In this document: positions 7,634-54,510 of the stretch, one piece after another
Position numbering within the stretch: the stretch's first letter is position 1
Layout of the letters: every line of letters begins with the position of its first letter
NCBI GenBank assembly: GCA_049997815.1
Contig: JBEKVQ010000001.1
Span: 20,642-84,641, forward strand
Origin: Minisyncoccia bacterium
GTDB lineage: Bacteria; Patescibacteriota; Minisyncoccia; UBA6257; GWB1-50-10
Direction: 5' to 3'
DNA length: 64,000 nt
Made by a program: the position numbers and the translations under genes
The notes under the pieces: model-generated
Told to the model about the DNA's origin: nothing
What the model saw: the letters and a program-made list of their open reading frames with translations, nothing else
Databases searched by the model: none

Positions 7634-7640
7634 AGAGACG

Positions 7641-7669: not shown

Positions 7670-7671
7670 TC

Positions 7672-8712
7672 TTATTCTTCGTCCACCGGCGAGCTCGCTC
7701 CTATTACAATTTTCTTCTCTGCCGCCTCCTCCGTCTTTTTCTTAATGGCTTCCAATAATTTCTTGTCTTCTTTTAATTTCAGCCGGACGTTGTCAAAACC
7801 GACGCCCAGTTTTTCATCGCCGAACGAAAAGCTCGCGCCATTCTTCCTTACCACGCCGTACTTGATGGCCGTATTCATCACGTCCGCTTCGTAGGAGATT
7901 CCCTCGCCGAACATTATGTCGAATTCCGCTATCTTGAAAGGCGCCGCCACCTTATTTTTGACTATCTTCGCCTTCACGCGATTGCCGATGCTCTCCTCAC
8001 CTTTCTTCACCTGGGCGATGCGCCGGATGTCTATCCGGACGGAGGCGTAAAACTTGAGCGCCATTCCCCCGGTCGTCGTCTCCGGATTCCCGAAGACCAT
8101 GCCGATCTTCATTCTGGTCTGGTTTATGAAAATTATGATGGTGCCGGACTTGTCCGCAATGGCGGTGAGCTTGCGGAGCGCCTGGGACATAAGCCGGGCC
8201 TGAAGGCCCATGTGGGAAGCGCCCATTTCGCCCTCTATCTCCGCCTTCGGCGTGAGCGCGGCGACGGAGTCTATGACCACCACATCAATGATGCCGGAGC
8301 GCACCAAGCTCTCCAGAATGTTCAGCGCCTCCTCGCCGTTATCCGGCTGGGAGATTATCAGGTCCTTCACTTTTACCCCAATTCTTGCGGCATATTCCGG
8401 GTCCAGAGCGTGCTCGGCATCGATAAAGGCCGCTTTCCCGCCCCGTTTTTGGGCTTCTGCGACTGCGTGGAGCGCGAGCGTCGTCTTGCCGGAGCTCTCC
8501 GGGCCGAATATCTCGATGACGCGGCCCTTCGGCAATCCCCCGCCGAGCGCCAAGTCCAGCGAAAAAGAACCGGAGGGCACCACCGCCACTTTCGAATGGT
8601 GGTTTTCGCCCAACCTCATTATCGCTCCCTCGCCGAAGCGCGACTGGAGCGATTCGATGAGCGAATCCAGTTCCTCGCCGGGTTTTTCGTTAGTTTTTTT
8701 ATTGGGTGCCAT
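7672..8712 (-). CDS. recA: recombinase RecA
   Basis: GPESSGKTT Walker [19 protein letters not shown]. Full-length RecA (346 aa). Confidence 0.95.
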
Positions 8713-9382
8713 TGGTTTTATTTTCGGGTTTCGCCGGCTGGTAAAAGATTTGCTTGGTAATCGTATATGCCTTTCCCAGAAGTTTTTTAATTTGGAAGGT
8801 GACGTTATTAAAGCCCGACTGGAGCAGAATGTTCTTCTCGAAACTGCCGTCTTTTTGGGGATAGACCGCTTCGCCGTTAACCGTAAGTTCGTCGGATGGG
8901 TTCATTATACCATGGATAGTGAAGCTGGGATCCGAAGCGATTGTCGGGTTGGCGGTAAGGTTCGTAAGATTAAGCTCCGGCTGTCCGAAAAGTCCCGGTA
9001 AACGGATGGCGAGGTAGCCCAAAACGATAACGGCGATAACGGAAGCCACCACGATTTTCTTGTTGAGTTTCGGAATGGCGAAGCGATTGGGTGGAAGAAT
9101 GTCCTCTTCTCCAGACCGGCGGATTTCCTCGCGGTTCTTCAAAAATTCCTGCCAAAGTTTTTGTCCGTCCAGATTAAGGACCTCGGCAATTTTCAAGAGA
9201 TAGCCGTGGACGTACGGCGCGGGCGGAAGTTTGTCGAACCGCTCCTCCAAAATGAGTGCGAGCGCTCGCTCCGAGACCCCCGTGAGCTGGGAAAGTTTGT
9301 CTATCGTGAGCCCCTTCAATTTGAGGGATTCCAATATCAGATTGGTCAGGTTTTTATTCTCGTTCTCCATTTTCTTCTCCAT
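8699..9382 (-). CDS. rodZ: RodZ-like HTH/transmembrane cytoskeletal protein
   Basis: N-terminal XRE-type HTH with [14 protein letters not shown] (the RodZ signature), a central TM helix and a C-terminal beta-rich domain. Confidence 0.5.
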
Positions 9383-36500: not shown

Positions 36501-36920
36501 ATAACGGACGATATCGAATCTCTTCATTACAATACCGCCATTAGCGCTTTAATGATTCTCCTGAACGAACTTGAGAAGGCAAATCCCGACAGAGAGAATA
36601 AAGAAGTGTTTTTGAAACTTCTCGCTCCCTTTGCCCCCCATATAACCGAGGAGCTTTGGCATGAATTGGGCAATCCGGCGTCGATTCATAGAGAATCCTG
36701 GCCAGTCGCCAATCCAAAATTATTGAAAGAGGAGGATTTCGACATGGTGGTTCAGGTGAACGGAAAACTGCGAGCAACCGTCAAAATGCCGAGGGGCATT
36801 GCCCAGAAAGATGCCGAGAAAGCAGCATTGAGCAATGAAAATGTGAGGAATTCCCTTGCCGGGCAGAAACCGAAGAAAATCATTTTCGTCCCCGACCGCT
36901 TAATTAATTTCGTGGTTTGA
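33525..36920 (+). CDS. leuS: leucine--tRNA ligase with two inserted hydrolase domains (alpha/beta serine hydrolase; Nudix)
   Basis: Canonical LeuRS blocks: PYPSAEGLHVGN (HIGH), NWIGKSEG, TTRPDTLFGATY (CP1), RLRDWLISRQRYWG and KMSKSKGN. Insert 1 (aa ~236-415) carries LLHGYTGS and GHSLGG. Insert 2 (aa ~555-690) carries a perfect Nudix box GGKIEDGENDSDTLRREIAEETGY. Confidence 0.9.
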   Translation: MKEYDFQKIEKKWQKRWLEDGTYEPDLVKAKNPFYNLMMFPYPSAEGLHVGNMYAFTGADIYGRMKRMRGYDVFEPIGLDGFGIHSENYALKIGAHPMDQAKISEKRFYEQLRMIGNGFAWNEKVETYNPDYYKWTQWVFTEMWRRGLAYRKKQSVNWCPKDKTVLADEQVIAGKCERCSAVVVKKDMEQWFFRITKYAEKLLKNLDKIDWSERVKIAQRNWIGKSEGALLDFEIKGGVAPSYVLLHGYTGSPKKHFFPWLKKELEKRGAKVYAPELPDAEDPKVYDQAAEVLKSVPFGEDTVLVGHSLGGVVALKVLEKLNKPVRKTVLVTSYNENKFFNDPFEPHTFDWKFDVKKIKANAGNIHILRDMTDDVVPSYQADNLKDVFGGEIFDFSAATPHAWGKKEKEEPEILGHCIDSLRVFTTRPDTLFGATYMVVAPEHGMVGELKEKITNYKEVEAYVKKTSNKSEEERIEEGKEKTGVELKGIKAVNPVNNEEIPVFIADYVLASYGTGAIMAVPAHDERDYEFAKKYKLPIREVVIRKFGETKSGAQERKTVYAVVKHKDKILLVFNKKLNEHQLPGGKIEDGENDSDTLRREIAEETGYDHVTPQTYLGQIDFNYFFRHYKFDSHLRAKGYLVELNDEHKIPVRNSTGENMQSSEWMEADRAIECMKNGTWSGIEGFIKRATGQESLCFSGDGVLVDSDNFDGTDSEKAKWEITKLVGGERKIQYRLRDWLISRQRYWGAPIPMIHCEACASKGDGEQKEMLGWYAVPEKNLPVELPYVKDFRPQGKGESPLASVKEFYEAKCPHCGGKARRETDVSDTFLDSAWYYLRYPSAKEKNKAWDLEMTKKWFPVNLYTGGAEHSVLHLLYVRFVAMAFHDAGWLDFEEPFPKFRAHGLLIKEGAKMSKSKGNVINPDEYIKKFGADSLRMYLMFLAPFEQGGDFRDEAVLGIVRFLDRVWNLYMKEPGVSGWADENVLRLTHRTIKKITDDIESLHYNTAISALMILLNELEKANPDRENKEVFLKLLAPFAPHITEELWHELGNPASIHRESWPVANPKLLKEEDFDMVVQVNGKLRATVKMPRGIAQKDAEKAALSNENVRNSLAGQKPKKIIFVPDRLINFVV

Positions 36921-41305: not shown

Positions 41306-42586
41306 ATGTTGCCCAAAAACATTAAAATAGAGCAGGTGCCAGTGAAGGACCTAAAACCCGCCGCGTATAACCCGAGGAAATGGGATGAAAAGGCCCTCGC
41401 TGACATGAAAGAGAGCATTTCCCGCTTCGGCCTCTGCGACCCCCTGATCGTGAACGGGGCTCCGGCACGGAAGAACGTCGTGATCGGCGGCCATCTCCGG
41501 CTGAAGGTCGCGACGCTTCTAGGACACGCCGAGGTGCCCGTCGTCTATCTGAACATTCCGGAGATCGAGCGGGAGAAAGAGCTGAATCTGAGATTGAACA
41601 AAAATGTCGGCGCGTGGGACGAAGAACTCTTGAAGGCGTTTGACACGGATCTCCTCCTCGATGTTGGGTTCACGCCGGACGAACTGAATTCGTTCTTCGA
41701 CGACGTGCTTGAGATTTCTGACGATGGCTTTGATGTTGAAGAAGAGCTCGCAAAAATCACCAAGCCGGAGACGAAGCCCGGCGACTTGTACCAACTGGGC
41801 GGCCATCGCCTGCTCTGCGGCGATGCGCTCGACCCCGCGCAGGTCGCGAAGCTCATGGATACGGAACGCGCTCACATGATATTTTCCGATCCGCCGTACA
41901 ATATCGCCCTCGACTACAGGAAGGGCATCGGCACCAAAGGCAAATACACGACGGAGAAATTGGTCAACGATAGCAAGGGAACAAAAGAATATGAAACGTT
42001 TCTCGGGGACGCGCTCAGGAACGCACTCACCGCGAGCCGGCCCGACGCGCACATCTTCTTCTGGTGCGATGAAAAGTACGTGTGGCTGCTCCAGACGCTC
42101 TATGAGAAGTACGGCGTGGCGAACCGGCGGCTTTGCCTCTGGGTCAAAAACAACTTCGACCCCACGCCGCAGGTGGCGTTCAACAAAGTGATTGAACTGT
42201 GCGTATACGGCACGAAAGGCAGCCCCGCGCTCAATCCGAGCATCCGGAATCTTTCCGAGGTGCTGAACAAGGAAGCGAACTCCGTCGGCCTCTACGACGA
42301 CCTCATGTCAATCGTCCAGCTCTGGCTCGTGAAGCGGGACACGACGACCGACTACGAGCACCCCACCCAGAAGCCGATCACGCTCTGCGAAAAGCCAATC
42401 AAGCGGTGCAGTGCGCCGGGCGACATAATCCTCGACCTCTTCGGCGGGTCGGGCAGCACTCTGATCGCCGCAGAACAATTGAAGCGCCGGGCATTCCTCG
42501 TCGAGATCGACCCGACCTTCTGCGACCTCATCGTCCGCCGATGGGAGCATTCCACCGGAAGCCATGCCAAACTCATCAAAAAATAA
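41306..42586 (+). CDS. ParB-like nuclease domain fused to an N6-adenine/N4-cytosine DNA methyltransferase
   Basis: N-terminal ParB/Srx region (LKPAAYNPRKW...LIVN...GGHLRLKVA). MTase motif IV FSDPPYNI and motif I DLFGGSGSTLIAAEQ (beta-class order). Confidence 0.8.
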   Translation: MLPKNIKIEQVPVKDLKPAAYNPRKWDEKALADMKESISRFGLCDPLIVNGAPARKNVVIGGHLRLKVATLLGHAEVPVVYLNIPEIEREKELNLRLNKNVGAWDEELLKAFDTDLLLDVGFTPDELNSFFDDVLEISDDGFDVEEELAKITKPETKPGDLYQLGGHRLLCGDALDPAQVAKLMDTERAHMIFSDPPYNIALDYRKGIGTKGKYTTEKLVNDSKGTKEYETFLGDALRNALTASRPDAHIFFWCDEKYVWLLQTLYEKYGVANRRLCLWVKNNFDPTPQVAFNKVIELCVYGTKGSPALNPSIRNLSEVLNKEANSVGLYDDLMSIVQLWLVKRDTTTDYEHPTQKPITLCEKPIKRCSAPGDIILDLFGGSGSTLIAAEQLKRRAFLVEIDPTFCDLIVRRWEHSTGSHAKLIKK

Positions 42587-43328
42587 AATATGGAAACTGG
42601 GAAATCATCGGTTGCTCCTCGGAGATGCCGCAAAGCAAGAGGATATTGCCCGGGTTTTGGGTAAAGAAAAGGCATCTCTCTTGCTCACCGACCCGCCCTA
42701 CGGCGTGGGCTACGTCGAAGGCAAACAGGAATTTCTGGCGATCATCCACAAAGGAAGCGGCGGCGCAAAGTTTTCCGCCATTGCGGGCGATTCCCCCGAA
42801 GATGACTACTACAACTTTTCCCTCCGGTGGCTCGAGGCCGTGCGGCCGCACCTCGCGGAGAAAAACAGCTTCTATATCTTCAATGGCGACACGAAGCTGC
42901 GGGAACTTTTAAACGCCCTTTATGATGCCCGCTATGTAAAGTCCGCGCTGCTCATCTGGATCAAAAACCATCTCGTCATCGGCCGCAAGGATTACCATCC
43001 CCAGCACGAACTTATCGTCTACGGCTGGTACGGCAGGCATGCTTTCTTCGGACAAAAAGACAAAAGCGCCCTCTTTTATCCCAAGCCGCAAAAGAGCACG
43101 CTCCATCCCACCATGAAACCGCCCGCCCTCCTGCGGCGGCTCATCTACCATTCAAGCCAGCCGGGAGACGCGGTGCTCGATCCCTTCGGCGGGTCGGGTT
43201 CCACCCTGATCGCCTGCGAGCATCTCAGCCGAAGGTGCTTCATGATCGAGCGCGATGAGGGATATTGCCGGACCATCATCGACCGGTGGCAGAAGCTTAC
43301 CAAACAAAAGGCCAAATCACTCGCATGA
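42564..43328 (+). CDS. DNA methyltransferase (beta-class N6A/N4C), paralogue of the preceding MTase domain
   Basis: LGNHRLLLGDA (compare LGGHRLLCGDA in the previous gene), LTDPPYGVGY, DPFGGSGSTLIACE. Overlaps the upstream gene by 23 bp. Confidence 0.8.
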   Translation: MPNSSKNKIWKLGNHRLLLGDAAKQEDIARVLGKEKASLLLTDPPYGVGYVEGKQEFLAIIHKGSGGAKFSAIAGDSPEDDYYNFSLRWLEAVRPHLAEKNSFYIFNGDTKLRELLNALYDARYVKSALLIWIKNHLVIGRKDYHPQHELIVYGWYGRHAFFGQKDKSALFYPKPQKSTLHPTMKPPALLRRLIYHSSQPGDAVLDPFGGSGSTLIACEHLSRRCFMIERDEGYCRTIIDRWQKLTKQKAKSLA

Positions 43329-43717
43329 ACACGGATAGCGATGACAATACCAAAACGCCGAACGTCTACAAGAAGCGCGAATTCGAATCGTATGTCTTGT
43401 GGCGGTCGATGCCTTCGATCCTGCGCGGCCAGCCGCGGCACGTTATCGAAAGGCTGGGCATCGACGACGAGCTCGCCATATCGCTCCTCGATATCAAGAA
43501 CCAGACCGAATTCGCCCAGCGCTTCGGAATCAAGGACTTGGGGACCTTGACCGAGTGGAACAAGAAGATCGAGGAGGCGGGCGGCCTCATGAAGAGCATC
43601 CACCTCTGGGCGAAGCGGCTCACCCCGAATGTGGTCTCGGCCCTCTACCGCGAGGCCACGAAAACCGGGCGGGCAGCCGAAGTCAAAGCGTGGATGGAAA
43701 TAGTCGAAGGAATGTAA
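43325..43717 (+). CDS. hypothetical protein (130 aa)
   Basis: ATGA start/stop overlap with the MTase gene. Predicted helical. No motif recognised. Confidence 0.4.
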   Translation: MNTDSDDNTKTPNVYKKREFESYVLWRSMPSILRGQPRHVIERLGIDDELAISLLDIKNQTEFAQRFGIKDLGTLTEWNKKIEEAGGLMKSIHLWAKRLTPNVVSALYREATKTGRAAEVKAWMEIVEGM

Positions 43718-43725
43718 CCAACACC

Positions 43726-43938
43726 ATGGATCAAGCAAACAAAAACAAAGTGCTGACGATCGACGAGGCGGCGGCCATTCTTTCCGAGACGCTCGAAGAG
43801 GTGACTCAGCGGAAAACCTCCCTGCGCCGGGCGATGACGATCTCGCGCCTCGCGCTTGCGCTCGCGAAGGTCGCAGAGATCAAAGACCTCAAGGACCGGG
43901 TCGAGTTTCTTGAGCAGGCGTTAAAGAAAAGGAAATGA
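43726..43938 (+). CDS. hypothetical small coiled-coil protein (70 aa)
   Basis: Tightly packed in the operon. Heptad-like helical sequence. Confidence 0.35.
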   Translation: MDQANKNKVLTIDEAAAILSETLEEVTQRKTSLRRAMTISRLALALAKVAEIKDLKDRVEFLEQALKKRK

Positions 43939-43939
43939 C

Positions 43940-45787
43940 ATGAAAAACATTTTGAACATATTGAGCCGGGAGAACAATCTCACGCCGCGGGAAAAGTTTC
44001 TCCTCTTGGTCAAAAACGACACCCAAAAAGCCAAAACCGGCAAAGACATGCTGACCGAGGCCGACAAAGAAGCGCTCGAAAACTGGCATGCCAAGACGAG
44101 CGAGGAAGCCCGAGAATGGAACCAGTTAAACGAGGGCTGGAAATACGGCGGCCGCATGGACATCGAGGCCGAGTTTGCCTATAAAGACGCCCAGGTGGCC
44201 TACCTGTCTCAGCTGCCCATCATCGTCGACCTTTTATATTACCCGGGAGATCGGCGGATGGGCTCCTGCATCGATGGCCTCAAGCGCCTCAAAAAAGTGA
44301 CGATAGACGAGGCGGTCGCGATCGCCCAAAAGCAGAAAGCGGCAAAACTCAGCGAAGGCTTGGATTTTGAATATGCCGTCTATCAACTAGCCTTTGAACT
44401 TTTGAGCGATGATGACAAAAAAAGCATGAAAGCGCTTTACGAGGACGTAGAGTTCGATCATCAGTATCTCGATCAGGAGGAAATCATCGCCCACCTCTAC
44501 CACGGCCGAAAAACACTGAGCCGGGAAGCGAAGGAAAAACTGGCTGAGCTCGTAGCCGAGCAGAGTTACAACGGGTTTGCTAAGGAGTACCAGCTGTTCC
44601 ACTATTTCGCCTGCATTCCCGTCCTTGAGGTGGCGAGATACTATCTCAAGCACCACGGAATCGAAATTGCGGGCGCACCCATGCCAAAAAATCAAGAAGC
44701 GCAGGATGGGGATGAAGACACCCACAATGCGGTAATGAAAGCTATGCAAAAATACGCCGAGGAGCATGGCATCACCATCAAGGCCATGCTACGCGAAGCC
44801 TGCCTCCGGTGGATTGACGAAGACCTCCTTGAGGAATATCTGCCCCTTGCGGCAAGCAACAGCGCGGACCTTTTGGAGAGGTGGTTTGGGAGCAAGGGCG
44901 AGGCCCGGAAAATCTTGCTCAAGCACGTTCAATCGGGCGAACTCGCCTTTAGAGACCGGACGGATAAGGAAACTAGGAAGGAAAAATTGTATAGCAAGGG
45001 TCTTGGCGACCGCGAGGCTGAATCGGCCCGGATGGCTCTGGAGAACTTCAACCTCAAGCCCATCCTCAAGGGGGAGCTTGACGAGAAAGTCGCCTTTGAG
45101 ACATTCAGTGATAGAGTCATTACTGGTGAAAGCCTCTATGCGTTCACCGGAAATTATCGGTTTGTTAAGGAATTCAAAAAACGGGTCGATACCTACGATG
45201 CCAACCTGGGTCTCGTCTACGCCGAGAGCGACCCCGAACAAAAAGGCGAACACCTCGACCAGGAGCTTCTGATCTGCGACCTGACCGATAAAGGCGAGGC
45301 CGCCCCTTTCAGCTTCTACGGCATCAATATGACGCTGCTCTCGAGCATCTTCCGAGGACACTCCTTATTCGAAGAATTCCGGAAAAACGGCAAACTCTGG
45401 ATCAGATTCAAGAATGCGGAGATACAAAAGACGTTTATGGAACGGAGGCAAACGCTCATGGATGGGTACGCAAATCTGCTTGCGATCGAGGGTGTTTTCA
45501 AAAAACTCTCCCCGATGTACGAGATCGATATGGCCGAGCATGTCTCCGGCCGGCTCGCCACGGTACGGGAGTTCATCGAACAGTACAACCAGGCGGTGCG
45601 CACAGCGACGAACACCGACGACAAATCGCGGAAATCAAAAAACACTTTCCTTCAAGAGAAAGAGGAAATGCTGTTTGAAGACGACATAGTGATCGATATC
45701 GACGCTATAGAACCGAACCACGACATCGTGGGGGAACATGAAGCGAAACTGAGAGGGATTTTCCCCGTCTTCGGCGACGGTCGGTAA
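43940..45787 (+). CDS. hypothetical protein (615 aa), no recognisable domain
   Basis: Long uninterrupted ORF, translationally coupled to the preceding small genes. Acidic and helical-rich. Confidence 0.5.
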   Translation: MKNILNILSRENNLTPREKFLLLVKNDTQKAKTGKDMLTEADKEALENWHAKTSEEAREWNQLNEGWKYGGRMDIEAEFAYKDAQVAYLSQLPIIVDLLYYPGDRRMGSCIDGLKRLKKVTIDEAVAIAQKQKAAKLSEGLDFEYAVYQLAFELLSDDDKKSMKALYEDVEFDHQYLDQEEIIAHLYHGRKTLSREAKEKLAELVAEQSYNGFAKEYQLFHYFACIPVLEVARYYLKHHGIEIAGAPMPKNQEAQDGDEDTHNAVMKAMQKYAEEHGITIKAMLREACLRWIDEDLLEEYLPLAASNSADLLERWFGSKGEARKILLKHVQSGELAFRDRTDKETRKEKLYSKGLGDREAESARMALENFNLKPILKGELDEKVAFETFSDRVITGESLYAFTGNYRFVKEFKKRVDTYDANLGLVYAESDPEQKGEHLDQELLICDLTDKGEAAPFSFYGINMTLLSSIFRGHSLFEEFRKNGKLWIRFKNAEIQKTFMERRQTLMDGYANLLAIEGVFKKLSPMYEIDMAEHVSGRLATVREFIEQYNQAVRTATNTDDKSRKSKNTFLQEKEEMLFEDDIVIDIDAIEPNHDIVGEHEAKLRGIFPVFGDGR

Positions 45788-45840
45788 CGCAGAAATCCCA
45801 GCCAACGACCCCTTGCGGTACCCGAACTGGATCGAGTGGT

Positions 45841-46905
45841 TTAGGGCGATTCTAACCGAGAGTCATTCCAGTAATCGTGAGACTGAAACCAAAACTCGTT
45901 TTTCAGCCTCTCGCTCAATCTTCGTGTGTTGGCGTGAGACAGAACGCCGAGATATGACTGAATGGACTGCTCGAAACTCAGCTTAGAGATTTTTCTAGTC
46001 TCGTATTTTTTCATCCTTTCTTCCATTTTTTTAAACATCCTATGTTTGGTTTTTGACCGGATGAGTCTGTGGTGAGGGAAAATAACATAGCCAAGGAAAT
46101 CCACTCCTTGACATACTGAACGAAGTATGCTTTTATTAGGATGTAACTTAAGTGCGAGTTCATTTTCAAGAAATTCAGAGATCGGATTCAGAAGCTTTTC
46201 CAATTCTTCGGGGCTTTCCGAGACCAGGGCGAAATCATCGGTGTAGCGGACGTAGTGTTTTACTTTCAACCTATGCTTCACAAACTGATCAAGTTCGTTC
46301 ATATAGACATTGGCAAAGAGCTGGGAGGTCAGATTCCCTATGGGGATGCCCTTCCCCGGTGCACTCTCGTAACTCCTCACAATAGACTCCAAAAGCCACA
46401 GCGCATCAACGTCTTTGATGCGTTTTTTGATTATGGAAAGCAGGATTTCGTGGCTAACGGAGTCAAAGAACTTCCGGACATCACATTTCAGTACAAAACA
46501 GGGATGAGTGTTGTTCCGGCTTACTTCCCTCATAATCTTCTCCAAAACTTCCACCCCTTTATGAGTGCCAAAACCCACCCGACACGAAAACGAAGTTGGA
46601 ATGAAGGTCGGCTCGAAGACCGGGTTCACGACCGAGAAGACTGCGTGATGGAGAATCCGATCCCGAACCGTGGCCTTGTGGATATGACGCAGTTTTGGGT
46701 CAGTGATGTAAAAGCCTTTATACGGACCATGCTTATAGGTCTTACTTTTCAAATCCCGGTGAAGTTGAAAAATATTTCGCTCAAGATTCCATTCGAAACT
46801 CTGGACATCCGGCTTACCCCGCTTATCGCTCTTGAACGAATCCCAGGCCGAGAAGAGGTTCTCCGGCGAGATAATTCTTTCAAAAATGTTTTTATAGATC
46901 TTCAT
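45841..46905 (-). CDS. diversity-generating retroelement reverse transcriptase
   Basis: RT motifs including GIPIGNLTSQLFANVYM (the DGR-specific I/LGxxxSQ in place of the group II QG...) and YVRYTDDFAL (YxDD). Only 354 aa, with no maturase or endonuclease domain. Confidence 0.8.
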   Translation of the reverse strand: MKIYKNIFERIISPENLFSAWDSFKSDKRGKPDVQSFEWNLERNIFQLHRDLKSKTYKHGPYKGFYITDPKLRHIHKATVRDRILHHAVFSVVNPVFEPTFIPTSFSCRVGFGTHKGVEVLEKIMREVSRNNTHPCFVLKCDVRKFFDSVSHEILLSIIKKRIKDVDALWLLESIVRSYESAPGKGIPIGNLTSQLFANVYMNELDQFVKHRLKVKHYVRYTDDFALVSESPEELEKLLNPISEFLENELALKLHPNKSILRSVCQGVDFLGYVIFPHHRLIRSKTKHRMFKKMEERMKKYETRKISKLSFEQSIQSYLGVLSHANTRRLSERLKNEFWFQSHDYWNDSRLESP

Positions 46906-46924
46906 AAAAGGTATTCAATAACCT

Positions 46925-47275
46925 ATGGATGATTTCGACATTCCGATATTCAAAAAATCATACGAACTTTACAAAACGTTCTATGGATACCGTACCATTA
47001 TTGCCAAGCAGGACAGATACGCCATATGGCAGAGATCCGAGGATACAACCTTGGAGATTCTCGAAGGGATCCTTGCAGCCAGTCAGGCGTATAAAACGGA
47101 CAAACTACCAGCCCTTGAGAAAGTCAGTCTCAAACTGAACATTCTGCGCGTCTTTCTTCGGCTCATGAAAGAGGTAAAAACGCTGGATAATAAGAAGTAC
47201 ATCGCGCTCCAGTCGCTCGTGGATGAGATCGGGAGAATGCTCGGCGGATGGATTAAATCCACCAAAGAAAGATAG
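46925..47275 (+). CDS. avd: DGR accessory variability determinant (Avd; four-helix-bundle / 23S rRNA IVS-protein family)
   Basis: C-terminus EIGRMLGGWIKSTKER closely parallels BPP-1 Avd EVGRILGSWIARVNRK. Length is 116 aa. A hairpin cccgct-atttt-agcggg follows the stop. Confidence 0.7.
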   Translation: MDDFDIPIFKKSYELYKTFYGYRTIIAKQDRYAIWQRSEDTTLEILEGILAASQAYKTDKLPALEKVSLKLNILRVFLRLMKEVKTLDNKKYIALQSLVDEIGRMLGGWIKSTKER

Positions 47276-47327
47276 GGAGAATGCCCGCTATTTTAGCGGG
47301 TATTCCACCTTCATTGAGGAGTGACTT

Positions 47328-47452
47328 CGAGACGAAGCCGGAAGCCGAACCATAGTTGTCGTTAGCATTGCTGACCCAGTTCGTGTTGAACTTGACCTTG
47401 TCGTCGTTGAACTTGAAGTTCGGGGCGTTGTCGAAATCGCCATCGGCCTCAG
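47328..47452 (-). repeat. DGR template repeat (TR)
   Basis: 125 bp. On the minus strand it reads GAC AAC GCC CCG AAC TTC AAG TTC AAC ..., with 8 AAC codons. Matches the VR except at its adenines. Confidence 0.8.
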
Positions 47453-47722
47453 AAATCATTGCCCTCGTCCATCCACGTCACTGGAAATCAAGGTTTACCG
47501 CTCAATAAGAGCTTATATCCTCTCAATCCTGTATTTTATCCGGCAGCATCTCTAAAAAGAAAACCTGCACCAGACAAGAGCAAGCAGTAATCTCCTCAAT
47601 ACAATACGCTCTTGGAAACCTTGACCTCCAAGATTCTGATTGTTTTTCTCTTCCTTGAAGAGAGAGTTCGGTGACGGCAATCCGTGAACTACCGTTCATG
47701 AACCTAATCTCATTCTGAATTA

Positions 47723-47764
47723 TACAAAAATAAAGAGGTTATCCACAATGAAGTGAATAACCTC
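47723..47764 (-). terminator. rho-independent terminator of the DGR target gene
   Basis: gaggttat...ataacctc hairpin with a U-run on the minus strand, downstream of the target-gene stop. Confidence 0.5.
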
Positions 47765-47840
47765 TCAAAAATATGACGCGGACGAAAGGATCAAACGACA
47801 AAACGTCAAAAGGTCCAAGGGTCCAAGGTACAATGTTCGA

Positions 47841-48755
47841 TTACTGCGAGACGAAGCCGGAAGCCGAACCACAGGCGTCGCCAGCAGCGCCGACCCAGCG
47901 CGCGCCGAACCGGACCCGGCCGTCGTCGAACCCGAAGCGCGGGGCGCGGCCGAAAACGCCATCGGCCCCAGGAGAGAATTCGTCGCCGGCACAGTCGATC
48001 CAAAGATCGTCATAGTTCTGTAGACGTTCCGGATGAGTAAGAATCATTATCCCTACTGCGAAAGCACCAAGACCGAACTGGTTGTCTTTCATGACTTCCA
48101 GTGCCCGACGGACTGAACGGCCTCTGTGAAGGATGCCGAATTGCGCGGCCACGACGAGAATGTCGTGATCCTTCTGTTCTTCGCCAAGCTTCTGGAAAAT
48201 CTTCGCCGATTTCTCGGACTGACGGAGATTCTTCGGACCAAGCTGACCTTCACGGTAGTTGTAGAACTTGCCGTCGCGGGTCTTCTTGATCAGATCCAGA
48301 ACCTTCTGGACTGCTTCTCCGTAGGTCGGAGCAACACTCTGCCACTTCGGGATAGCAAACCATCCTTCGGCGTTTGCGGGAAGCGGCTGTTCGGCCAGTT
48401 TCTCGTCGGCGAATCCGATGCCGGGGATGAGCTGGCGCAGGATGTTGGTCTGCTCGGTGATACCCTTCGGTTTGTATCCGGAGAGGTATCCGTATTTCGA
48501 CGATACTTCTTCACTGGCGAACTGATTCGAAACGGAAAGTTCTTTTACTTTCGCAATCGAGAATTCCAACATCGCGGAGCGATATTCATCTCCCCGCCCG
48601 AGAAAACACTGGAGACTGTCTTTGTTGAAACCAGCCTTTTCAACGGCTATTTCGGCCACTTCTTCATTCAAGTCTTGAATGAATCGTTTGACCTGCTTTT
48701 TCTGACCGGGAGTGATCCCGTTAGATGTGATCGATGTATTTTTCATCGTCATCAC
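47841..48755 (-). CDS. DGR variable (target) protein
   Basis: 304-aa ORF whose last ~41 codons are the VR (…GADGVFGRAPRFGFDDGRVRFGARWVGAAGDACGSASGFVSQ). The C-terminal Gly/Trp-rich region is compatible with a C-type-lectin/FGE-like variable fold, but this is inferred. Confidence 0.7.
   Translation of the reverse strand: MMTMKNTSITSNGITPGQKKQVKRFIQDLNEEVAEIAVEKAGFNKDSLQCFLGRGDEYRSAMLEFSIAKVKELSVSNQFASEEVSSKYGYLSGYKPKGITEQTNILRQLIPGIGFADEKLAEQPLPANAEGWFAIPKWQSVAPTYGEAVQKVLDLIKKTRDGKFYNYREGQLGPKNLRQSEKSAKIFQKLGEEQKDHDILVVAAQFGILHRGRSVRRALEVMKDNQFGLGAFAVGIMILTHPERLQNYDDLWIDCAGDEFSPGADGVFGRAPRFGFDDGRVRFGARWVGAAGDACGSASGFVSQ
47847..47971 (-). repeat. DGR variable repeat (VR) at the 3' end of the target gene
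   Basis: 125 bp aligned to the TR with 28 mismatches, every one at a TR adenine. The shared A-free 3' end GGTTCGGCTTCCGGCTTCGTCTCG is IMH-like. Lies 3 bp from the target-gene stop. Confidence 0.8.
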
Positions 48756-48994
48756 CCTTTCAATTAGTGAATGTATGGGTTATTTAAATGAGCGTTCCTG
48801 AGATTCAAGAACGGTTTGATATTACCATATTATGGTATAAAAGTCAAATCAATAAATAGCTCTGTTTATAGAGGTATTCTTTAAAATAGTCTGGATTCTC
48901 AATGTTCAGCCTTATACTGAATTTTTGAGTAAGCTTTCAGTGGGCTCTTGGGACGCTCTGGATTCCTCCGGGGCTTCGCGTCATCTCTTGTGGT

Positions 48995-50341
48995 ATGAAT
49001 ACCCAAACCATGGGGGCGAACGGGACGGGAGCCTCCACAACAATCCCGGCCCAAGTAAAGGTCAAATACCTGCTCTATGCGAGGAAAAGCACGGAATCGG
49101 AGGAGCGGCAGATACTCTCCATTGATTCGCAGGTGAAGGAGATGCTTCAGCTGGCCGAGCGCGAGGGGTTGGAAATCTCCGAGATTCGGCGCGAAAGCCA
49201 CTCGGCCAAAGCGACCGGACAACGTCCGGTGTTCAACGAGATTATCAATGATATTCGCCTCGGCAAGTTCAACGGCATTCTCACCTGGGCGGCGGATCGG
49301 TTATCGAGAAATGCCGGGGATCTGGGCAAGCTCGTGGATCTGATGGATGAGAAACTCCTTGTTGATATCCGGACGTACGGCCAGCGATTCAGTAATTCGC
49401 CGAACGAGAAGTTTCTTCTCATGATCCTCGGGTCACAGGCGAAGCTCGAGAACGATAATCGGGGCGTGAACGTGAAGCGCGGACTGCGAACGCGATGCGA
49501 GATGGGATTGCGGCCGGGCGTAGCGCCCACTGGCTATCTCAACGAGAAAAGAATGGATAGAAAATGCCAAGTGCTCATCGACCCCGATCGCGCCCATATC
49601 ATCAAAAAGATTTTTGAGAAGGTAGCTAATGAACATTGGAGCGGAAGGAAGGTCTATCACTGGCTACGCTTCGATCTGAACTTCCGCACGAAGAGCAACC
49701 ACCACCTCTCGCTCGGAAACATCTATTTAATGATTCAGAATCACTTCTATTACGGAAGATTCGAGTATCCGGAAAAGAGCGGCATGTGGTATGACGGCAA
49801 GCACCAGCCGATTATAAGCAAAGAGTTGTTCGATAAAGTGCAGGAGCAACTGAAACGGGACCAGATCGTGCGGTCGGAAATAAAAGAATTCGCATTTACG
49901 AAGCTCATGACCTGCGGGCTCTGCGGATCGGGCGTGAGCGCCGAGGAGAAATATAAGAAGCTCAAAGATGGCACGTCGGCGCGATATGTCTACTATGGCT
50001 GCAGCCGGGCGCGGGACAAGAACTGCAAAGCCGGATATATACGCGAAGAGGATCTCATTGAACAGCTCGTGAAGGTTATGGACAAGCTCGATATAAGTGA
50101 GATCGGTATGCAGCATAAATTTGAAGAGGAAGTAGCAAGATTCAATAAATTCCAAAAGGGCATCCTCGGGATGCAGGGTATAAAAACCAATGCGAAAGAC
50201 GTAGATCTGCGTACCTACGCGAAGTATCTTCTCCGGGAAGGGAGTGCCATCGAAAAGCGTGAGCTACTGGCGTGTGTGAAGAGTAAATTTATATTCAAAA
50301 ACAAGCTTGTGCATCTAGAAAAAGCACTAACTGAGCAATAA
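48995..50341 (+). CDS. large serine recombinase
   Basis: Resolvase catalytic domain (YARKSTESEERQ with the nucleophilic Ser), a recombinase domain and a C-terminal zinc ribbon (CGLCGS...YYGCS). Confidence 0.8.
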   Translation: MNTQTMGANGTGASTTIPAQVKVKYLLYARKSTESEERQILSIDSQVKEMLQLAEREGLEISEIRRESHSAKATGQRPVFNEIINDIRLGKFNGILTWAADRLSRNAGDLGKLVDLMDEKLLVDIRTYGQRFSNSPNEKFLLMILGSQAKLENDNRGVNVKRGLRTRCEMGLRPGVAPTGYLNEKRMDRKCQVLIDPDRAHIIKKIFEKVANEHWSGRKVYHWLRFDLNFRTKSNHHLSLGNIYLMIQNHFYYGRFEYPEKSGMWYDGKHQPIISKELFDKVQEQLKRDQIVRSEIKEFAFTKLMTCGLCGSGVSAEEKYKKLKDGTSARYVYYGCSRARDKNCKAGYIREEDLIEQLVKVMDKLDISEIGMQHKFEEEVARFNKFQKGILGMQGIKTNAKDVDLRTYAKYLLREGSAIEKRELLACVKSKFIFKNKLVHLEKALTEQ

Positions 50342-50378: not shown

Positions 50379-52121
50379 ATGAAAACCTATGAACACTTGA
50401 CTTTATATTTGCAGTCTGATAGACTTGAATTACAAGCTATGAGAAAGGATATACAAGCAAAACTTAATGGAATGCCGGAATTGCTCTCTATCAGCCAGGT
50501 AGCTGAGATTTTCAATATTCACCCCGACACCCTCCGAAACTGGGAGAAGGAAGGCATTTTAGTGCCTCTACGGGCCGGTAAGCGCGGAGACCGCAAATAC
50601 CGCCCCCAGGACATTCAAACCATTGTGGACAAAATGGGCAGTAAGCTCACCCTGCCACAACTTGAGCAGTTCCTTTGGAAAAGCGCCGATATTCTCCGCG
50701 GCAAGATCGACAGCTCCGATTACAAGAAATATATATTCGGACTCCTCTTTTACAAACGAATCAGTGACGTTTGGGACGAGGAATATAAGCGAGTGATGGA
50801 AGAATATAAAGATGAGACGGTCGCGCGAGCTGATTACAACCACCGTTTTCAAGTACCTCAGGATTGCCGGTGGTCAGTTATTGAGGAGCAGGCGGAAAAT
50901 ATCGGCCCCAAGCTTAATGGAATCTTTGATAAGCTCACGAACGCCAACAGCCCGAAGCTGGACAAAATTTTTGACGACCTCGATTTTGCACACAAAGATA
51001 AATTTCCGAATGAAACCACTCAGCGTTTAATAAATCACTTTTCGCAATACAACTTTAGCGATACGTATATCAACTCCGATCTTCTTGGGGACGCATACGA
51101 GTATCTCATTAAGCAGTTTGCGGCTGATGCCGGGAAGAAGGGTGGGGAATTTTATACCCCGCGAGAAGTTGAGCGCGTTATCATCCAAATTCTGAAGCCA
51201 CACAAGAAAGATCACATATATGATCCTACCGTTGGATCAGGCGGTTTTCTTCTTGAAGCGTATCACCACCTAAAGGAAACAGATGGCGAAAAAATTGCAC
51301 GGACACTTTATCTCTATGGGCAAGAAATAAACATCGGAACATTTGCGATCGCGAAGATTAATATGTTTCTCCACGGACTTGACGCTGCAGATGTCCAGCG
51401 CGGTGACACACTCGCGAATCCTCAATTCTTGAACCCGAACGGAACGCTAAAAACATTCGACATCTGCGTAGCAAATCCTCCCTACTCAATTAACGACTGG
51501 GAAAGCGAGCTGTTTAAAGAAAGATATGGCCGAATTGAAGGTTACGAAATACCGCCGAAGAGTAATGCGGACTATGCTTTCGTACTCCATATCATAAAGT
51601 CAATGAATTCAAATGGCCGCGCAGGTATCGTATTGCCTCACGGTGTTTTATTTCGCGGTGGTGCTGAAGGACGTATCCGTGAACAGATTCTCAAGAACGA
51701 CCTTATTGAGGCGGTGATTGCGCTCCCACCTAAGCTTTTTTATGGTACCGGCATACCGGCGGCGATTCTCATTTTCAACAGAAATAAGTCGGAGGACCAT
51801 AAAAATAAAGTCTTCATCATTGATGCCGAGAAGGACTTTTCCGAAGGCAAAAACCAGAACTCACTACGCGTGCAGGATATCCAAAAGATTGTGAGGGCAT
51901 ATGAAAACTACACAGACATTGAGGGCTATGCTCGAGTCGTTGGCCTTAAAGAGATTGAGGAGAACGAGTACAGCCTCGGTGCGCGCAGATATATTGAAAA
52001 CGACGACAAGGAAGAGACTATAGATGTTTCTGCCGTTCGAAAGGAACTCCTCGCGATTCAAAAGGAACGCGCGGATATAGATAAAAAGGTTGAGGGATTT
52101 CTCTCGGATCTTAAATATTGA
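50379..52121 (+). CDS. hsdM: Type I restriction-modification methyltransferase subunit HsdM with an N-terminal MerR/Xis-type HTH extension
   Basis: HsdM N-domain, FYTPREV, and VANPPYSI (motif IV NPPY). The first ~85 aa form a HTH_17-like domain (LLSISQVAEIFNIHPDTLRNWEKEGIL). Confidence 0.9.
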   Translation: MKTYEHLTLYLQSDRLELQAMRKDIQAKLNGMPELLSISQVAEIFNIHPDTLRNWEKEGILVPLRAGKRGDRKYRPQDIQTIVDKMGSKLTLPQLEQFLWKSADILRGKIDSSDYKKYIFGLLFYKRISDVWDEEYKRVMEEYKDETVARADYNHRFQVPQDCRWSVIEEQAENIGPKLNGIFDKLTNANSPKLDKIFDDLDFAHKDKFPNETTQRLINHFSQYNFSDTYINSDLLGDAYEYLIKQFAADAGKKGGEFYTPREVERVIIQILKPHKKDHIYDPTVGSGGFLLEAYHHLKETDGEKIARTLYLYGQEINIGTFAIAKINMFLHGLDAADVQRGDTLANPQFLNPNGTLKTFDICVANPPYSINDWESELFKERYGRIEGYEIPPKSNADYAFVLHIIKSMNSNGRAGIVLPHGVLFRGGAEGRIREQILKNDLIEAVIALPPKLFYGTGIPAAILIFNRNKSEDHKNKVFIIDAEKDFSEGKNQNSLRVQDIQKIVRAYENYTDIEGYARVVGLKEIEENEYSLGARRYIENDDKEETIDVSAVRKELLAIQKERADIDKKVEGFLSDLKY

Positions 52122-52122
52122 T

Positions 52123-53412
52123 ATGAAAACGGCACAGACGACAATTCCGAATGGGTGGCAACAAGCAAAGCTTGGTGACATTGCTAAGTTACGTAAGGGA
52201 TTAACTTACAAAAGTTCACACTATTCAAATAAGCAGGATGGTTTAATTTTTCTTACTCTCAAGTCCATCCTAAGAGGGGGTGGTTTTAATACCGATGGGA
52301 TAAAGTTCTATTCTGGAGATTATGATCCTTCTGCTGTTGTAAATGAAGATGATTTGGTGATCGCAAATACTGATATAACACGGGATGCTGAAGTTGTTGG
52401 AGCACCGATGCTGCTCCCGGGTTTTCCAAAGAAACCCGTCTTAATCTCAATGGATCTTTCTGTTTTAGATATCAACGAAAGAGGTGCAAATAAACACTTT
52501 ATATATTATCTTTTACAAGCTCCAATGGCCCGTAATTTTATGAGAGACCACTCAAATGGCTCTACCGTCCTCCATCTCAAGACCAAAGACGTTCCTAGAT
52601 TCAGTTTTTTAATGCCAACTATTACGGAACAGAAAAAGATTGCGGAGATTTTGGGGACAGTAGATGCAGAAATTAAAAAAACCGACGAGATTATTATTGC
52701 TACAGAGAAGCTCAAAAATGGGCTAGTACGACAGTTGTTTACCCGAGGTATTGGACACACAAAATTTAAGAAAACTAAATTCGGTGATATTCCGGCAGAA
52801 TGGACTACAGAAAGTTTCAAAGATTCGTCAATTGAAATTATTGATGGCGACCGCGGAGTTAATTATCCAAAGCAAACCGACTTCTCTGATGACGGCTACT
52901 GCTTGTTTTTGAATAATAAAAATATAAAGAACGATGCTTTTCTTTTTGAAGATTGCAGCTTTATCACAAAAGAAAAAGATGGGACCTTGCGCAAGGGAAA
53001 GCTGAAGCGCTTTGATGTTGTGCTTACCACAAGAGGAACTGTAGGAAATATTGCGTTTTATGACAGTACCGTCCCATTTGAAAACATTCGAATAAACTCC
53101 GGAATGTTGATCCTCCGCGTTTCGAGAGGTTATGAGCCAGAGTTCCTGTACCGACTAATGAGAAATGAGTATATGAAAAGGAAATATACCGAAACGGCTT
53201 CAGGGTCTGCTCAACCGCAGCTACCCATTCGTAGTCTGGAAAATATTCTTATAGTTAAGCCAGATATTTCCGAACAAAAAGAAATAGTCGCAATCGCAAA
53301 ATCGGTTGACGAAAAAATTTCTGTGAACAAAAAATTGAGAGAGAAGCTCATTCTTCTCAAAAAGGGACTTATGCAAGATCTTTTGAGCGGCAAGGTAAGA
53401 GTAGTTACATAA
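52123..53412 (+). CDS. hsdS: Type I RM specificity subunit HsdS
   Basis: Two target-recognition domains separated by the conserved central region (LVRQLFTRGIGHTKFKKTKFGDIP) and the C-terminal conserved helix (LKKGLMQDLLSGKVRV). Start taken 1 nt after the hsdM stop. Confidence 0.8.
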   Translation: MKTAQTTIPNGWQQAKLGDIAKLRKGLTYKSSHYSNKQDGLIFLTLKSILRGGGFNTDGIKFYSGDYDPSAVVNEDDLVIANTDITRDAEVVGAPMLLPGFPKKPVLISMDLSVLDINERGANKHFIYYLLQAPMARNFMRDHSNGSTVLHLKTKDVPRFSFLMPTITEQKKIAEILGTVDAEIKKTDEIIIATEKLKNGLVRQLFTRGIGHTKFKKTKFGDIPAEWTTESFKDSSIEIIDGDRGVNYPKQTDFSDDGYCLFLNNKNIKNDAFLFEDCSFITKEKDGTLRKGKLKRFDVVLTTRGTVGNIAFYDSTVPFENIRINSGMLILRVSRGYEPEFLYRLMRNEYMKRKYTETASGSAQPQLPIRSLENILIVKPDISEQKEIVAIAKSVDEKISVNKKLREKLILLKKGLMQDLLSGKVRVVT

Positions 53413-53418
53413 ATTATT

Positions 53419-54507
53419 ATGCGATTCATAGACATATTTAAAACTGATGCAGCATCTATTCTCCAGAATCGAAAGAATGGGGTTATTTATACTGCGGACT
53501 TTGGAAGTGGCGAAGGGAAATATATTAGTTCCGCATTTGATAGTACTGATCCCGTTGATTTGAGTATTCAGATTTCTCCAAAAGTCGAAGTGAGAATCGC
53601 ATATATTTTTAACGGTGAACAAATCAGTGGGTTACAGATATCGAAAGTTAATAATAAGGGTGAGCTGGAAAAGATTCATCTTTCGACCTTGGATTGGGAG
53701 GGAGTGCTTGGTTTACTCCAGATATTCTCGGAGATGGATATTAAGGCATTAGCGCGCAAAAATTTGATTTTGAATGAAAAAATTACAGAGAATCCTCAGG
53801 AGTTGGAAGCATTCTTAAAAACTATTAGCACTGATCCGGAGGGAAAAGAGAAAATGACGGAAATCGTGAAAAACTTTGGTCTTATTAAGCGTGGCGATAT
53901 TGATGAAATCGCTGAACGTAGAGAGTCATCAGCTCTATTTGATAGATTACTCAATAATTCCACCGAGTTTGCTGCAAAGAAAACAGAATGGGGTGTCGGT
54001 AAAAATGAAGAGGTTTGGCAAAGATTTTTTAAAGAAAATGTATGGATTCTTGGTGCAGAGTTTATTGAGATTCTTAATGAACGGGTGCTCGATACAGAAA
54101 ACATAACAGACTATATTGTGAAATCGTATGACGGTTTTGCGGATATTATTGAATTAAAACTTCCGAGTGTACAATTTTGGAACGCAGATCTAACACCAAA
54201 TAGTGACTTAGCAAAAGCACTCATGCAGTGTATGCGTTATATTTCGGCAATTGAAAGAAGGATCAACGACCTTGAGCTTAATAAAAAACTTGGTCGAACA
54301 GCTATTGTGAAACCTAGAATCACATTGATTTTTGGCCGGTCGAATAATTGGACAGATGAACAGAGGGAAACATACAGAATTTTAAATGCCAATTTTCATT
54401 CCATAAGTATTTTGACTTACGATCATGTTTTTGAGAGGGCAAAAAGGATGACTGCTAATAATATGCGTGACGTTGATGATATAAAACCGGAAGTTATCAC
54501 ATTTTAA
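53419..54507 (+). CDS. uncharacterised protein with a PD-(D/E)xK nuclease-like motif (possibly DUF4263/Shedu-like), embedded in the Type I RM operon
   Basis: ITDYIVKSYDGFADIIELKLP gives a D...ExK arrangement, followed by QCMRY. Sits between hsdS and hsdR with 6-bp and 3-bp gaps. Confidence 0.45.
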   Translation: MRFIDIFKTDAASILQNRKNGVIYTADFGSGEGKYISSAFDSTDPVDLSIQISPKVEVRIAYIFNGEQISGLQISKVNNKGELEKIHLSTLDWEGVLGLLQIFSEMDIKALARKNLILNEKITENPQELEAFLKTISTDPEGKEKMTEIVKNFGLIKRGDIDEIAERRESSALFDRLLNNSTEFAAKKTEWGVGKNEEVWQRFFKENVWILGAEFIEILNERVLDTENITDYIVKSYDGFADIIELKLPSVQFWNADLTPNSDLAKALMQCMRYISAIERRINDLELNKKLGRTAIVKPRITLIFGRSNNWTDEQRETYRILNANFHSISILTYDHVFERAKRMTANNMRDVDDIKPEVITF

Positions 54508-54510
54508 TTT

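Follow-up and report, generated by a model that had tools for sequence, protein, structure and literature searches.

The cassette described here is very probably an intact diversity-generating retroelement (DGR) of the Patescibacteria (CPR) clade, found in a Minisyncoccia MAG and laid out as target gene, structured RNA, template repeat (TR), reversed avd and reverse transcriptase (RT). Positions refer to the window, which is the whole 64-kb stretch of DNA that was analysed, and the features are as follows.

48819-48847, minus strand: promoter-like site ahead of the target gene (TTGACT and TAATAT 17 nt apart, with TG before the second hexamer)
47841-48755, minus strand: DGR target gene, encoding the variable protein, 304 aa when read from the GTG at 48755, without signal peptide or transmembrane helix
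47847-47971, minus strand: variable repeat (VR), the last 42 codons but one of the target gene, a 125-nt ungapped match to the TR
47847-47870, minus strand: A-free, GC-rich 3' end of the VR (IMH-like element), 24 nt, 67% GC, identical to TR 47328-47351
47733-47766, minus strand: terminator-like hairpin of the target gene, 14 pairs followed by TATTTTTGT
47719-47724, minus strand: TATAAT box, conserved and at constant spacing from the structured RNA that follows it, presumed to be the TR RNA promoter
47459-47712, minus strand: structured non-coding RNA domain directly 5' of the TR, ~255 nt, 8 helices, with covariation
47328-47452, minus strand: TR, ungapped match to the VR, 32 adenines, outside any real gene
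47318-47327, minus strand: conserved linker after the TR, AAGUCACUCC (family consensus GAAGUCUCUCC)
47278-47306, minus strand: covarying stem-loop in the gap that separates the TR from the end of avd, 8/10 pairs compensatory, -14.8 kcal/mol
46925-47275, plus strand: avd (accessory variability determinant), 116 aa, PF22296 bAvd at 58.9 bits (cut-off 40)
45841-46905, minus strand: DGR RT, 354 aa, PF00078, phrog_1423 at 3e-125

Exact ungapped comparison of the TR (47452-47328) with the VR (47971-47847) on the minus strand gave 125 nt without gaps and 28 mismatches, every one of which falls on a TR adenine, as the first-pass annotation had claimed. These changes affect 28 of the 32 TR adenines and comprise 19 A>G, 8 A>C and one A>T substitutions; if 28 mismatches are placed among 125 positions, the chance of every one hitting the 32 A sites is 5.6e-24. 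The 93 non-A positions are identical in the two repeats, and all ORFs of the cassette are intact. All 32 TR adenines occupy codon positions 1 or 2, and 21 codons within the repeat pair are variable. Eight Asn codons are present in the TR, the number given before, but these are seven AAC and one AAT rather than eight AAC, and they are accompanied by three conserved AAG codons, which are able to mutate to TAG stops and were counted against the main explanation.

A repeat search of the window recovered this pair at a length of 129 nt and 78% identity, with all 29 differences at A. The 29th (47327 A, 47846 C) lies within the final Gln codon, which is nearly invariant in the family, so that it more likely represents a fixed boundary difference than mutagenesis. 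No further VR-like copies were found in the 64 kb, in which the best background score was 78/129. The adenine pattern extends to the related loci (~40), where 852 of 1487 A sites differ between TR and VR compared with 105 of 4707 non-A sites, and the variable columns of the target-family protein alignment are the TR A codons. The TR is 96% identical to that of related locus L001 and the two VRs are 86% identical. The VR of the present locus is the most heavily substituted among those compared (29/34, against 0.30-0.78). Logan contig L085 ends 21 nt 5' of the VR, a one-sided break that is suggestive of an assembly break at the variable region and is uninterpretable.

Both repeats terminate in GGTTCGGCTTCCGGCTTCGTCTCG; the comparison confirmed this A-free GC-rich stretch, which had been proposed as an IMH-like 3' end. 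TR/VR homology stops directly past this element and divergence begins only downstream. IMH and IMH* are identical over the 24 nt, which was counted against the main explanation; cases of such identity were noted by Wu et al. (PMC5758913). A GC-rich inverted repeat was sought directly after the VR and none was present, the nearest hairpin being the terminator-like one 75 nt downstream. This type of repeat downstream of the IMH is needed for efficient BPP-1 homing and occurs in 34% of DGRs, so it is not universal (PMC5758913).

The RT carries both IGNLTSQ and YTDD, as reported from the first reading. The IGxxxSQ palm motif is diagnostic for DGR RTs. The best solved relative of the RT is 8ub7_A (E 1.2e-49), while group II RTs (2.6e-25), RTs of the retron type (about 1e-23) and Drt RTs come behind it, and 8ub7 appears to be the BPP-1 bRT, judging by residue numbering that matches the bRT cryo-EM preprint; the grouping check suggested by the first-pass annotation thus favoured a DGR RT. 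IGNLTSQ aligns with bRT I181-Q187, and K29, F66, R74, I76, D138, I181, G182, Q187, D215 and D216 of bRT are all conserved, so that the RT retains the full set of bRT residues to which roles in catalysis and adenine mutagenesis have been assigned. Among NCBIfam matches the best was a group II RT/maturase model, at 158 bits below its cut-off of 300, and these matches included no DGR-RT model. No phage RT exceeds about 38% identity to this RT.

The adjacent 116-aa protein, previously called Avd-like, passes the Pfam bAvd gathering score and matches phrog_3206 'Avd protein of DGR' (1.7e-19), and it falls 3 bits short of NCBIfam NF033474 DivGenRetAVD (76.8 bits, cut-off 80). Its C-terminus, said to parallel that of the BPP-1 Avd, does align with Bbp7 4dwl. 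Its strand had to be corrected to plus: avd is opposite to the RT, TR and target, and its start lies 19 nt from that of the RT gene on the other strand.

The VR had been described as ending 3 bp before the stop of a 304-aa ORF, and it does end 3 nt before the TAA, but the target gene likely starts at the ATG at 48746, giving the 301 aa of the NCBI record, rather than at the GTG at 48755. The promoter-like site at 48819-48847 is the sole sigma-70-like match in 45500-49100 and, by consensus match, may serve as the target promoter. The target has no Pfam or PHROG match, and a search of PDB sequences with the target-family profile returned nothing. Structure prediction, which had been proposed for the C-terminus with a C-type-lectin or FGE fold as the expectation, gave a helical region for residues 1-85 and a C-type-lectin/FGE-like model for residues 86-304 (pLDDT 97.8), which are predicted with high model confidence to adopt a divergent C-type-lectin fold. 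In this model the VR makes up the C-terminal strands of the domain. The protein is probably cytoplasmic, since it lacks a signal peptide and a membrane helix. Its homologues number more than 2,400, in 225 species genomes, and form about 1,700 clusters at 50% identity.

The sequence between the target gene and the TR (47712-47459) had been read as a spacer, which the comparative data do not bear out, since it forms a covarying structured RNA domain. In related loci its conservation exceeds that of the coding parts. RNAalifold gave 53 pairs, 40 of them with compensatory changes, and 95.5% of cells are paired compared with 32-53% when partners are slid, values that none of 500 shuffles reached. 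The domain includes a 12-bp long-range helix (47583-47572 with 47470-47459) and a hairpin at 47640-47604. An nhmmer profile of the domain matched once in the window, and it matched 42 of 43 loci with RT/Avd but 7 of 40 without. A 58-aa ORF within the domain (47699-47523) was rejected as coding on account of near-invariance at all three codon positions and the covarying helices. The TATAAT box is kept in those related loci whose alignment extends that far and is presumed, from its sequence and position, to be the promoter of the TR RNA.

Across the family, 86-91% of cells in the stem-loop at 47306-47278 are paired, and this element is a candidate Avd-binding stem-loop, bidirectional terminator or both. 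Stem-loops just downstream of the TR have been predicted in 207 of 278 Avd-type DGRs (bioRxiv 10.1101/2023.10.23.563531). A candidate cPRT-stop duplex, AGUGAC/GUCACU, is perfect in the window, but family-wide its pairing is 78% and 28 of 37 sequences break the central pair, and an alternative register of the duplex is 71% paired; a BPP-1-like cPRT-stop duplex upstream/downstream of the TR therefore does not appear to be supported across the family. The pairing of ACUAYGG in the TR with YCGAAGU, given by RNAalifold, was rejected as a priming duplex because the VR is mutated at the adenines of ACUAYGG, which means that these positions have to be copied. GCCGAAC in the leader and GTTCGGC in the TR are complementary and, assessed by eye, showed no consistent covariation. 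No priming site could be located.

The hairpin at 47640-47604 resembles the RT-7 RNA of Rfam (RF03028), matching the first ~40 model positions (CCAGAGUC-stem-UCAAGG-stem-GAGnGUG) with an E value of 1.5e-4, and both RNAs adjoin RT genes. RT-7 is one of the motifs RT-1 to RT-19 that Weinberg et al. 2017 reportedly found beside RT genes. The match scores 26.6 bits against a gathering score of 116.8 and skips 143 model positions, and 7 related loci gave no RT-7 match at E<=0.01; by the Rfam criterion the domain is not an RT-7 member. It is a real possibility, falling a little short of probable, that the RNA scaffold which places RT-Avd on the template in this clade is a dedicated ~255-nt multi-helix domain 5' of the TR, the counterpart of the 3' spacer in BPP-1, that the TR RNA is its own ~435-nt promoter-to-hairpin unit separate from the RT and avd messages, and that it represents a distinct, permuted DGR RNA class distantly related to RT-7.

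Among the closest known systems are the Bordetella phage BPP-1 DGR (mtd-avd-TR-brt) and Treponema denticola TvpA with other DGR variable proteins of the CLec fold. As in BPP-1, the TR-to-VR differences of the present cassette are adenine-specific, its VR stands at the C-terminus of a protein predicted to have a C-type-lectin fold, its RT has IGxxxSQ together with matching catalytic and fingertip residues, the C-terminus of its Avd carries GRxLGxWI, its repeats have in common a 3' end that is GC-rich and free of A, and a stem-loop follows the TR. The cassette differs in having its large structured RNA 5' of the TR, where BPP-1 has a spacer 3' of the TR, in the identity of IMH and IMH* over the GC-rich element with no inverted repeat after the VR, and in a target without phage tail-fibre context or secretion signal.

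CPR DGRs are a further group of close counterparts. A CPR clade with domain-less targets was described by Roux et al. 2021 (clade 2, PMC8144416), and both a 'CPR set' and the TR-(avd)-RT architecture, termed B3, come from Wu et al. 2018 (PMC5758913). The host phylum, chromosomal location, TR-(avd)-RT core and target lacking a recognisable domain or membrane anchor are all common to these systems, and the only difference found is the heavily substituted VR. About 40 related loci keep the TR-(avd)-RT core, and the module occurs in them in either orientation relative to the target. The cassette is a further example of this already described clade. No description of the target-family fold or of the 5' RNA domain was found in the papers covered by the analysis, Paul et al. 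2017 lying outside that coverage.

By analogy with BPP-1, an RNA would start just past the TATAAT box (about 47713) and carry the 5' domain, the TR and the 3' stem-loop. RT-Avd would bind this RNA and copy the TR to cDNA, placing random bases opposite the 32 adenines. The cDNA would then replace the VR, with the common A-free GC-rich 3' end as the homing boundary, recoding 21 codons and allowing up to about 10^18.8 protein variants.

The cassette lies within a roughly 10-kb island (40.4-50.3 kb) containing DNA methylases and a large serine recombinase, a combination that recurs around related cassettes. It has some plausibility, though we consider it unlikely, that the DGR is cargo of a CPR integrative mobile element or prophage and that the target serves this element, for instance in host/receptor recognition or counter-defence, rather than the cell. 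Consistent with mobility, the flanks of the cassette in the window carry genes for an IrrE/M78 peptidase, a ParB-methylase and a methylase, three genes without known function and the large serine recombinase; at least 8 related loci have the methylase/P130/P615 module together with the cassette, and 5 have the recombinase. The cassette also occurs on four IMG/VR viral contigs, two of them with methylase and recombinase, and its position differs between syntenic genomes. A scan of viral contigs with a 14-nt motif was swamped by chance matches. Against mobile cargo, related locus L002 is a bare four-part cassette that lacks a recombinase and has an aminoacyl-tRNA synthetase gene on one side and tsaD on the other. 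No gene could be recognised as encoding a capsid, tail or terminase protein, the target lacks a PHROG match, and the four viral contigs compare with 225 species genomes. The CPR clade was also classed as cellular by Roux et al. (PMC8144416).

The number of substitutions had been taken to suggest recent or ongoing diversification. This is not borne out: in public data the strain is otherwise represented only by JGI 3300038451 and Logan SRR13021960, both with an identical VR, and, since the VR is rewritten in full at each homing event, the substitution number is uninformative on recency. The identity of all three copies would fit a DGR that was recently silenced or is very rarely active, its VR being the frozen product of one past homing event kept by ordinary selection, although the copies are probably not independent samples and may share one sample. 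Cellular DGRs are described as less active than phage DGRs in the passage of PMC8632793 that cites Roux et al., and for about half of the related target genes neither a TR nor an Avd nor an RT lies within 4 kb, indicating that the protein family can exist without an adjacent DGR. This reading nevertheless appears improbable, since the RT, Avd, TR, 5' RNA domain and 3' hairpin are without exception intact and conserved, and a silenced element would acquire non-A differences between TR and VR by drift, of which there are none.

That the repeats arose by ordinary duplication, or that the RT comes from a group II intron, retron or defence system and the A-bias is coincidental, is already refuted: the group II model heading the NCBIfam matches and the lack of a DGR-RT model among them are outweighed by the A-only pattern with the probability given above and its recurrence in about 40 related loci, by an RT closer to bRT than to group II RTs with IGxxxSQ kept, by the adjoining Avd, and by an Rfam search that gave no intron or retron RNA.

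As an intact DGR, the locus provides a clean, complete reference case for a clade already catalogued by large surveys. Beyond those surveys, structure modelling makes an abundant, annotation-free CPR target family assignable to a divergent C-type-lectin fold. The position of the TR within a large covarying RNA offers a concrete construct for CPR DGR reconstitution, which would test whether the BPP-1 RNP architecture is conserved or permuted, and a permuted DGR RNA class, if true, would give the orphan Rfam motif RT-7 a function. The absence of an export signal from the target family sharpens the question of what role a cytoplasmic hypervariable binder may have in reduced, host-dependent bacteria.

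The cassette in the window is a genuine, complete diversity-generating retroelement (DGR), as the first-pass annotation had held, with the following parts:

47841-48755, minus strand, target gene encoding the 304-aa variable protein
47971-47847, minus strand, variable repeat (VR), within the target gene
47766-47733, minus strand, target terminator
47712-47459, minus strand, structured RNA of about 255 nt between the target terminator and the template repeat, found as a sequence-profile match
47452-47328, minus strand, template repeat (TR)
47306-47278, minus strand, stem-loop following a conserved linker 3' of TR
46925-47275, plus strand, avd, a 116-aa ORF on the strand opposite to the rest of the cassette
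45841-46905, minus strand, reverse transcriptase (RT), matching PF00078

Exact pairwise comparison of the two repeats gave a gapless alignment of 125 nt with 28 mismatches (19 A>G, 8 A>C and 1 A>T, TR to VR), all 28 at TR adenines as originally claimed (p = 5.6e-24 for 28 of 28 landing on 32 A sites by chance); 28 of the 32 TR adenines are altered in VR. A repeat finder also recovered the pair, and no third copy turned up when the whole window was scanned on both strands with tolerance for changes at A. VR, the A-poor copy, lies in frame at the end of the target ORF and stops 3 bp, or one codon, short of its TAA, again as annotated, while TR, the A-rich copy, is outside any real gene. All 32 TR adenines occupy positions 1 and 2 of target-frame codons. 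Eight AAC codons had been counted in TR; it does carry eight Asn codons, but seven are AAC and one is AAT. Its 21 variable codons allow up to ~10^18.8 protein variants. At 47327/47846 a further A-to-C change would bring the count to 29, but the final Gln codon that it falls in hardly varies across the family, and it more likely marks where homology ends. Three AAG codons (47413-47415, 47398-47400 and 47392-47394, minus strand), two of them conserved across the family, can mutate to TAG, and some homing events should therefore truncate the target, an unusual property in a TR dominated by stop-proof AAC codons.

The nearest solved relative of the RT is 8ub7_A (E 1.2e-49). Group II intron RTs (2.6e-25), retron-type RTs and Drt3a rank behind it, which supports the proposed DGR-type enzyme. 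The residue numbers K29, F66, R74, I76, D138, I181, G182, Q187, D215 and D216 of 8ub7_A are those named in a cryo-EM preprint for bRT, the RT of the Bordetella phage BPP-1 DGR, and the window RT keeps all ten, including IGNLTSQ and YTDD. Its phage relatives include known DGR phages, at identities of up to 38.5%. The 116-aa protein, suggested to be Avd-like, scored 58.9 bits with Pfam bAvd, whose cut-off is 40, and matches the PHROG "Avd protein of DGR", falling 3 bits short of the NCBIfam equivalog cut-off; its C-terminus is alignable with Bbp7/4dwl. The avd and RT start codons (46925 and 46905) lie 19 nt apart on opposite strands, and 4 nt apart in the related locus L001. Each gene must then have its promoter within the other, unless the RT is translated off a TR read-through transcript antisense to avd.

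Both the target and the RT are 100% identical to proteins of Minisyncoccia (Patescibacteria) MAGs, the target to a hypothetical protein, and the remaining window is an ordinary CPR chromosome encoding SHMT, FolD, RecA, FtsK, NusA, several aminoacyl-tRNA synthetases and TsaD. An unusual fusion is encoded at 33525-36920 (plus strand), a 1131-aa leucyl-tRNA-synthetase-like protein with inserted alpha/beta-hydrolase and NUDIX domains. The target family is very large, with more than 2,400 matches, 1,677 clusters at 50% identity and 225 species-level genomes containing relatives; of the 80 loci kept, the majority are in records titled Patescibacteria/CPR, and a few are under other names. The window locus belongs to an already described kind, since a CPR-restricted DGR clade, with targets lacking recognisable domains or membrane anchors, was reported by Roux et al. 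(PMC8144416), and the TR-(avd)-RT architecture is the B3 layout of Wu et al. (PMC5758913).

Comparison with these 80 genome loci and several metagenome loci identified the full cassette in about 40. The internal order TR-(avd)-RT is constant, and the module lies either downstream of the target, as in the window, or upstream and divergent. Across the related full cassettes TR differs from VR at 852 of 1487 A sites and 105 of 4707 non-A sites, the latter figure being too high because some ends are over-extended and two matches pair VR with VR; G is favoured among the substitutions (59%). Roughly half of the homologues of the target (L006, L011, L012, L014, L015 and some 30 others) lack any TR, Avd, RT and leader RNA within 4 kb, indicating that members of the target family are often found with no DGR beside them, whether they are remote targets or have lost their DGR.

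The window VR is indeed heavily diversified, its 29 of 34 substituted A sites being the highest fraction seen (0.30-0.78 in other loci). The first-pass annotation had taken this as a sign of recent or ongoing diversification, a step that fails because each homing event rewrites VR. The complete lack of non-A differences between TR and VR argues against a long silence. However, the only other public copies of the strain, JGI 3300038451 and Logan SRR13021960, both have the identical VR and may be from the same sample. Logan contig L085, from an independent assembly, ends at window position 47992, 21 nt upstream of VR, a break that may stem from VR heterogeneity among the reads or simply from low coverage.

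The supposed spacer between target and TR holds the conserved structured RNA, which is nearly invariant in 39 related loci and begins right after a conserved TATAAT. Compared with L001, this stretch has 91-95% identity and the genes have 83-89%. RNAalifold predicted eight helices with 53 pairs, and compensatory changes occur at 40 of these; the share of cells paired is 95.5%, falling to 32-53% with partners slid, and none of 500 shuffles reached the observed values. Pairing of 47583-47572 with 47470-47459 forms a long-range helix of 12 bp that closes the domain, which ends 6 nt before TR, and in inverted modules the RNA stays with TR and not with the target. The sequence profile of the RNA has one match in the window; among related loci it matches 42 of the 43 that have RT/Avd but 7 of the 40 that do not, and it also matches all four viral contigs. 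It has been reported by Weinberg et al. that RT-10 belongs to the BPP-1 spacer, with other RT motifs speculated to serve DGRs. Only the hairpin at 47640-47604 resembles the RT-associated Rfam motif RT-7, weakly and below threshold (26.6 bits, gathering score 116.8), and no related locus tested reached E 0.01 against this motif.

The stem-loop downstream of TR shows covariation at 8 of its 10 pairs and is a candidate for Avd binding, for bidirectional termination or for both roles. Stem-loops in the same place, just 3' of TR, were predicted in 207 of 278 Avd-type DGRs by Handa et al. (bioRxiv 10.1101/2023.10.23.563531); with TR and avd converging on it and runs of A and U on its flanks, it may terminate both the TR RNA and avd. 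An upstream/downstream duplex, AGUGAC/GUCACU, is perfect in the window but is not supported by the family-wide comparison, and the priming site was not located.

The best-supported reading is standard mutagenic retrohoming, in which, by analogy with BPP-1, TR RNA would be copied into cDNA that would replace VR. In BPP-1 the RNA wrapping RT-Avd is the 3' spacer, whereas in this clade most of the conserved RNA lies 5' of the template and only about 50 nt follow TR before antisense avd begins. A tentative proposal, falling just short of an even chance when its two parts are taken jointly, is that the 5' domain serves as scaffold for RT-Avd and that the TR RNA is a separate transcript of ~435 nt.

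The cassette sits in an island of ~40.4-50.3 kb with an IrrE/M78 peptidase and, at 41306-45787 and 48995-50341 (both plus strand), a ParB-methylase, a methylase, 130-aa, 70-aa and 615-aa proteins that match no family, and a large serine recombinase. The methylase/P130/P615 module accompanies related cassettes in at least eight loci and the recombinase in five, and two of the four IMG/VR contigs with the cassette also carry methylase and recombinase; module and recombinase together may represent an integrative element of CPR bacteria. In the syntenic relative L002 a bare four-part cassette (5974-8886) separates tsaD from a class I aminoacyl-tRNA synthetase gene, two genes that adjoin each other in the window (20505/20513), and the cassettes are 76% identical, against 66-71% for the syntenic flanks, which points to movement as a compact ~2.9-kb unit. 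The different sites, the recurring module and recombinase, and the viral contigs suggest that the cassette moves, sometimes on a recombinase-bearing element. The island adjoins five tRNAs and a type I R-M operon (50379-57423); the operon, with a Shedu SduA C-terminal domain gene (53419-54507, plus strand) embedded between hsdS and hsdR, forms a small defence island beside the DGR. Of 16 related loci, 5 have the LOOT RNA (RF03000), which is absent from the window, at no more than a few hundred bases from the target gene (73-84 bits, gathering threshold 46.4):

L001, 3044-3162, LOOT RNA
L004, 5048-5167, LOOT RNA
L009, 3564-3693, minus strand, LOOT RNA
L013, 5053-5181, LOOT RNA
L070, 5062-5185, LOOT RNA

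The target protein has no match in Pfam, NCBIfam, PHROG or PDB sequences, and a first, poor full-length model gave no fold matches. When the input alignment consisted of 128 diverse representatives of the family, residues 86-304 were modelled to pLDDT 97.8 as a divergent C-type-lectin fold, with residues 1-85 helical; Roux et al. (PMC8144416) had predicted that targets of the CPR clade would turn out to be new C-Lec variants. The protein is probably cytoplasmic, since its sequence has no hydrophobic N-terminus and no 19-residue window above 1.18 hydropathy. Two points merit follow-up: the assignment of the target family to this fold, and the structured RNA linked to TR.
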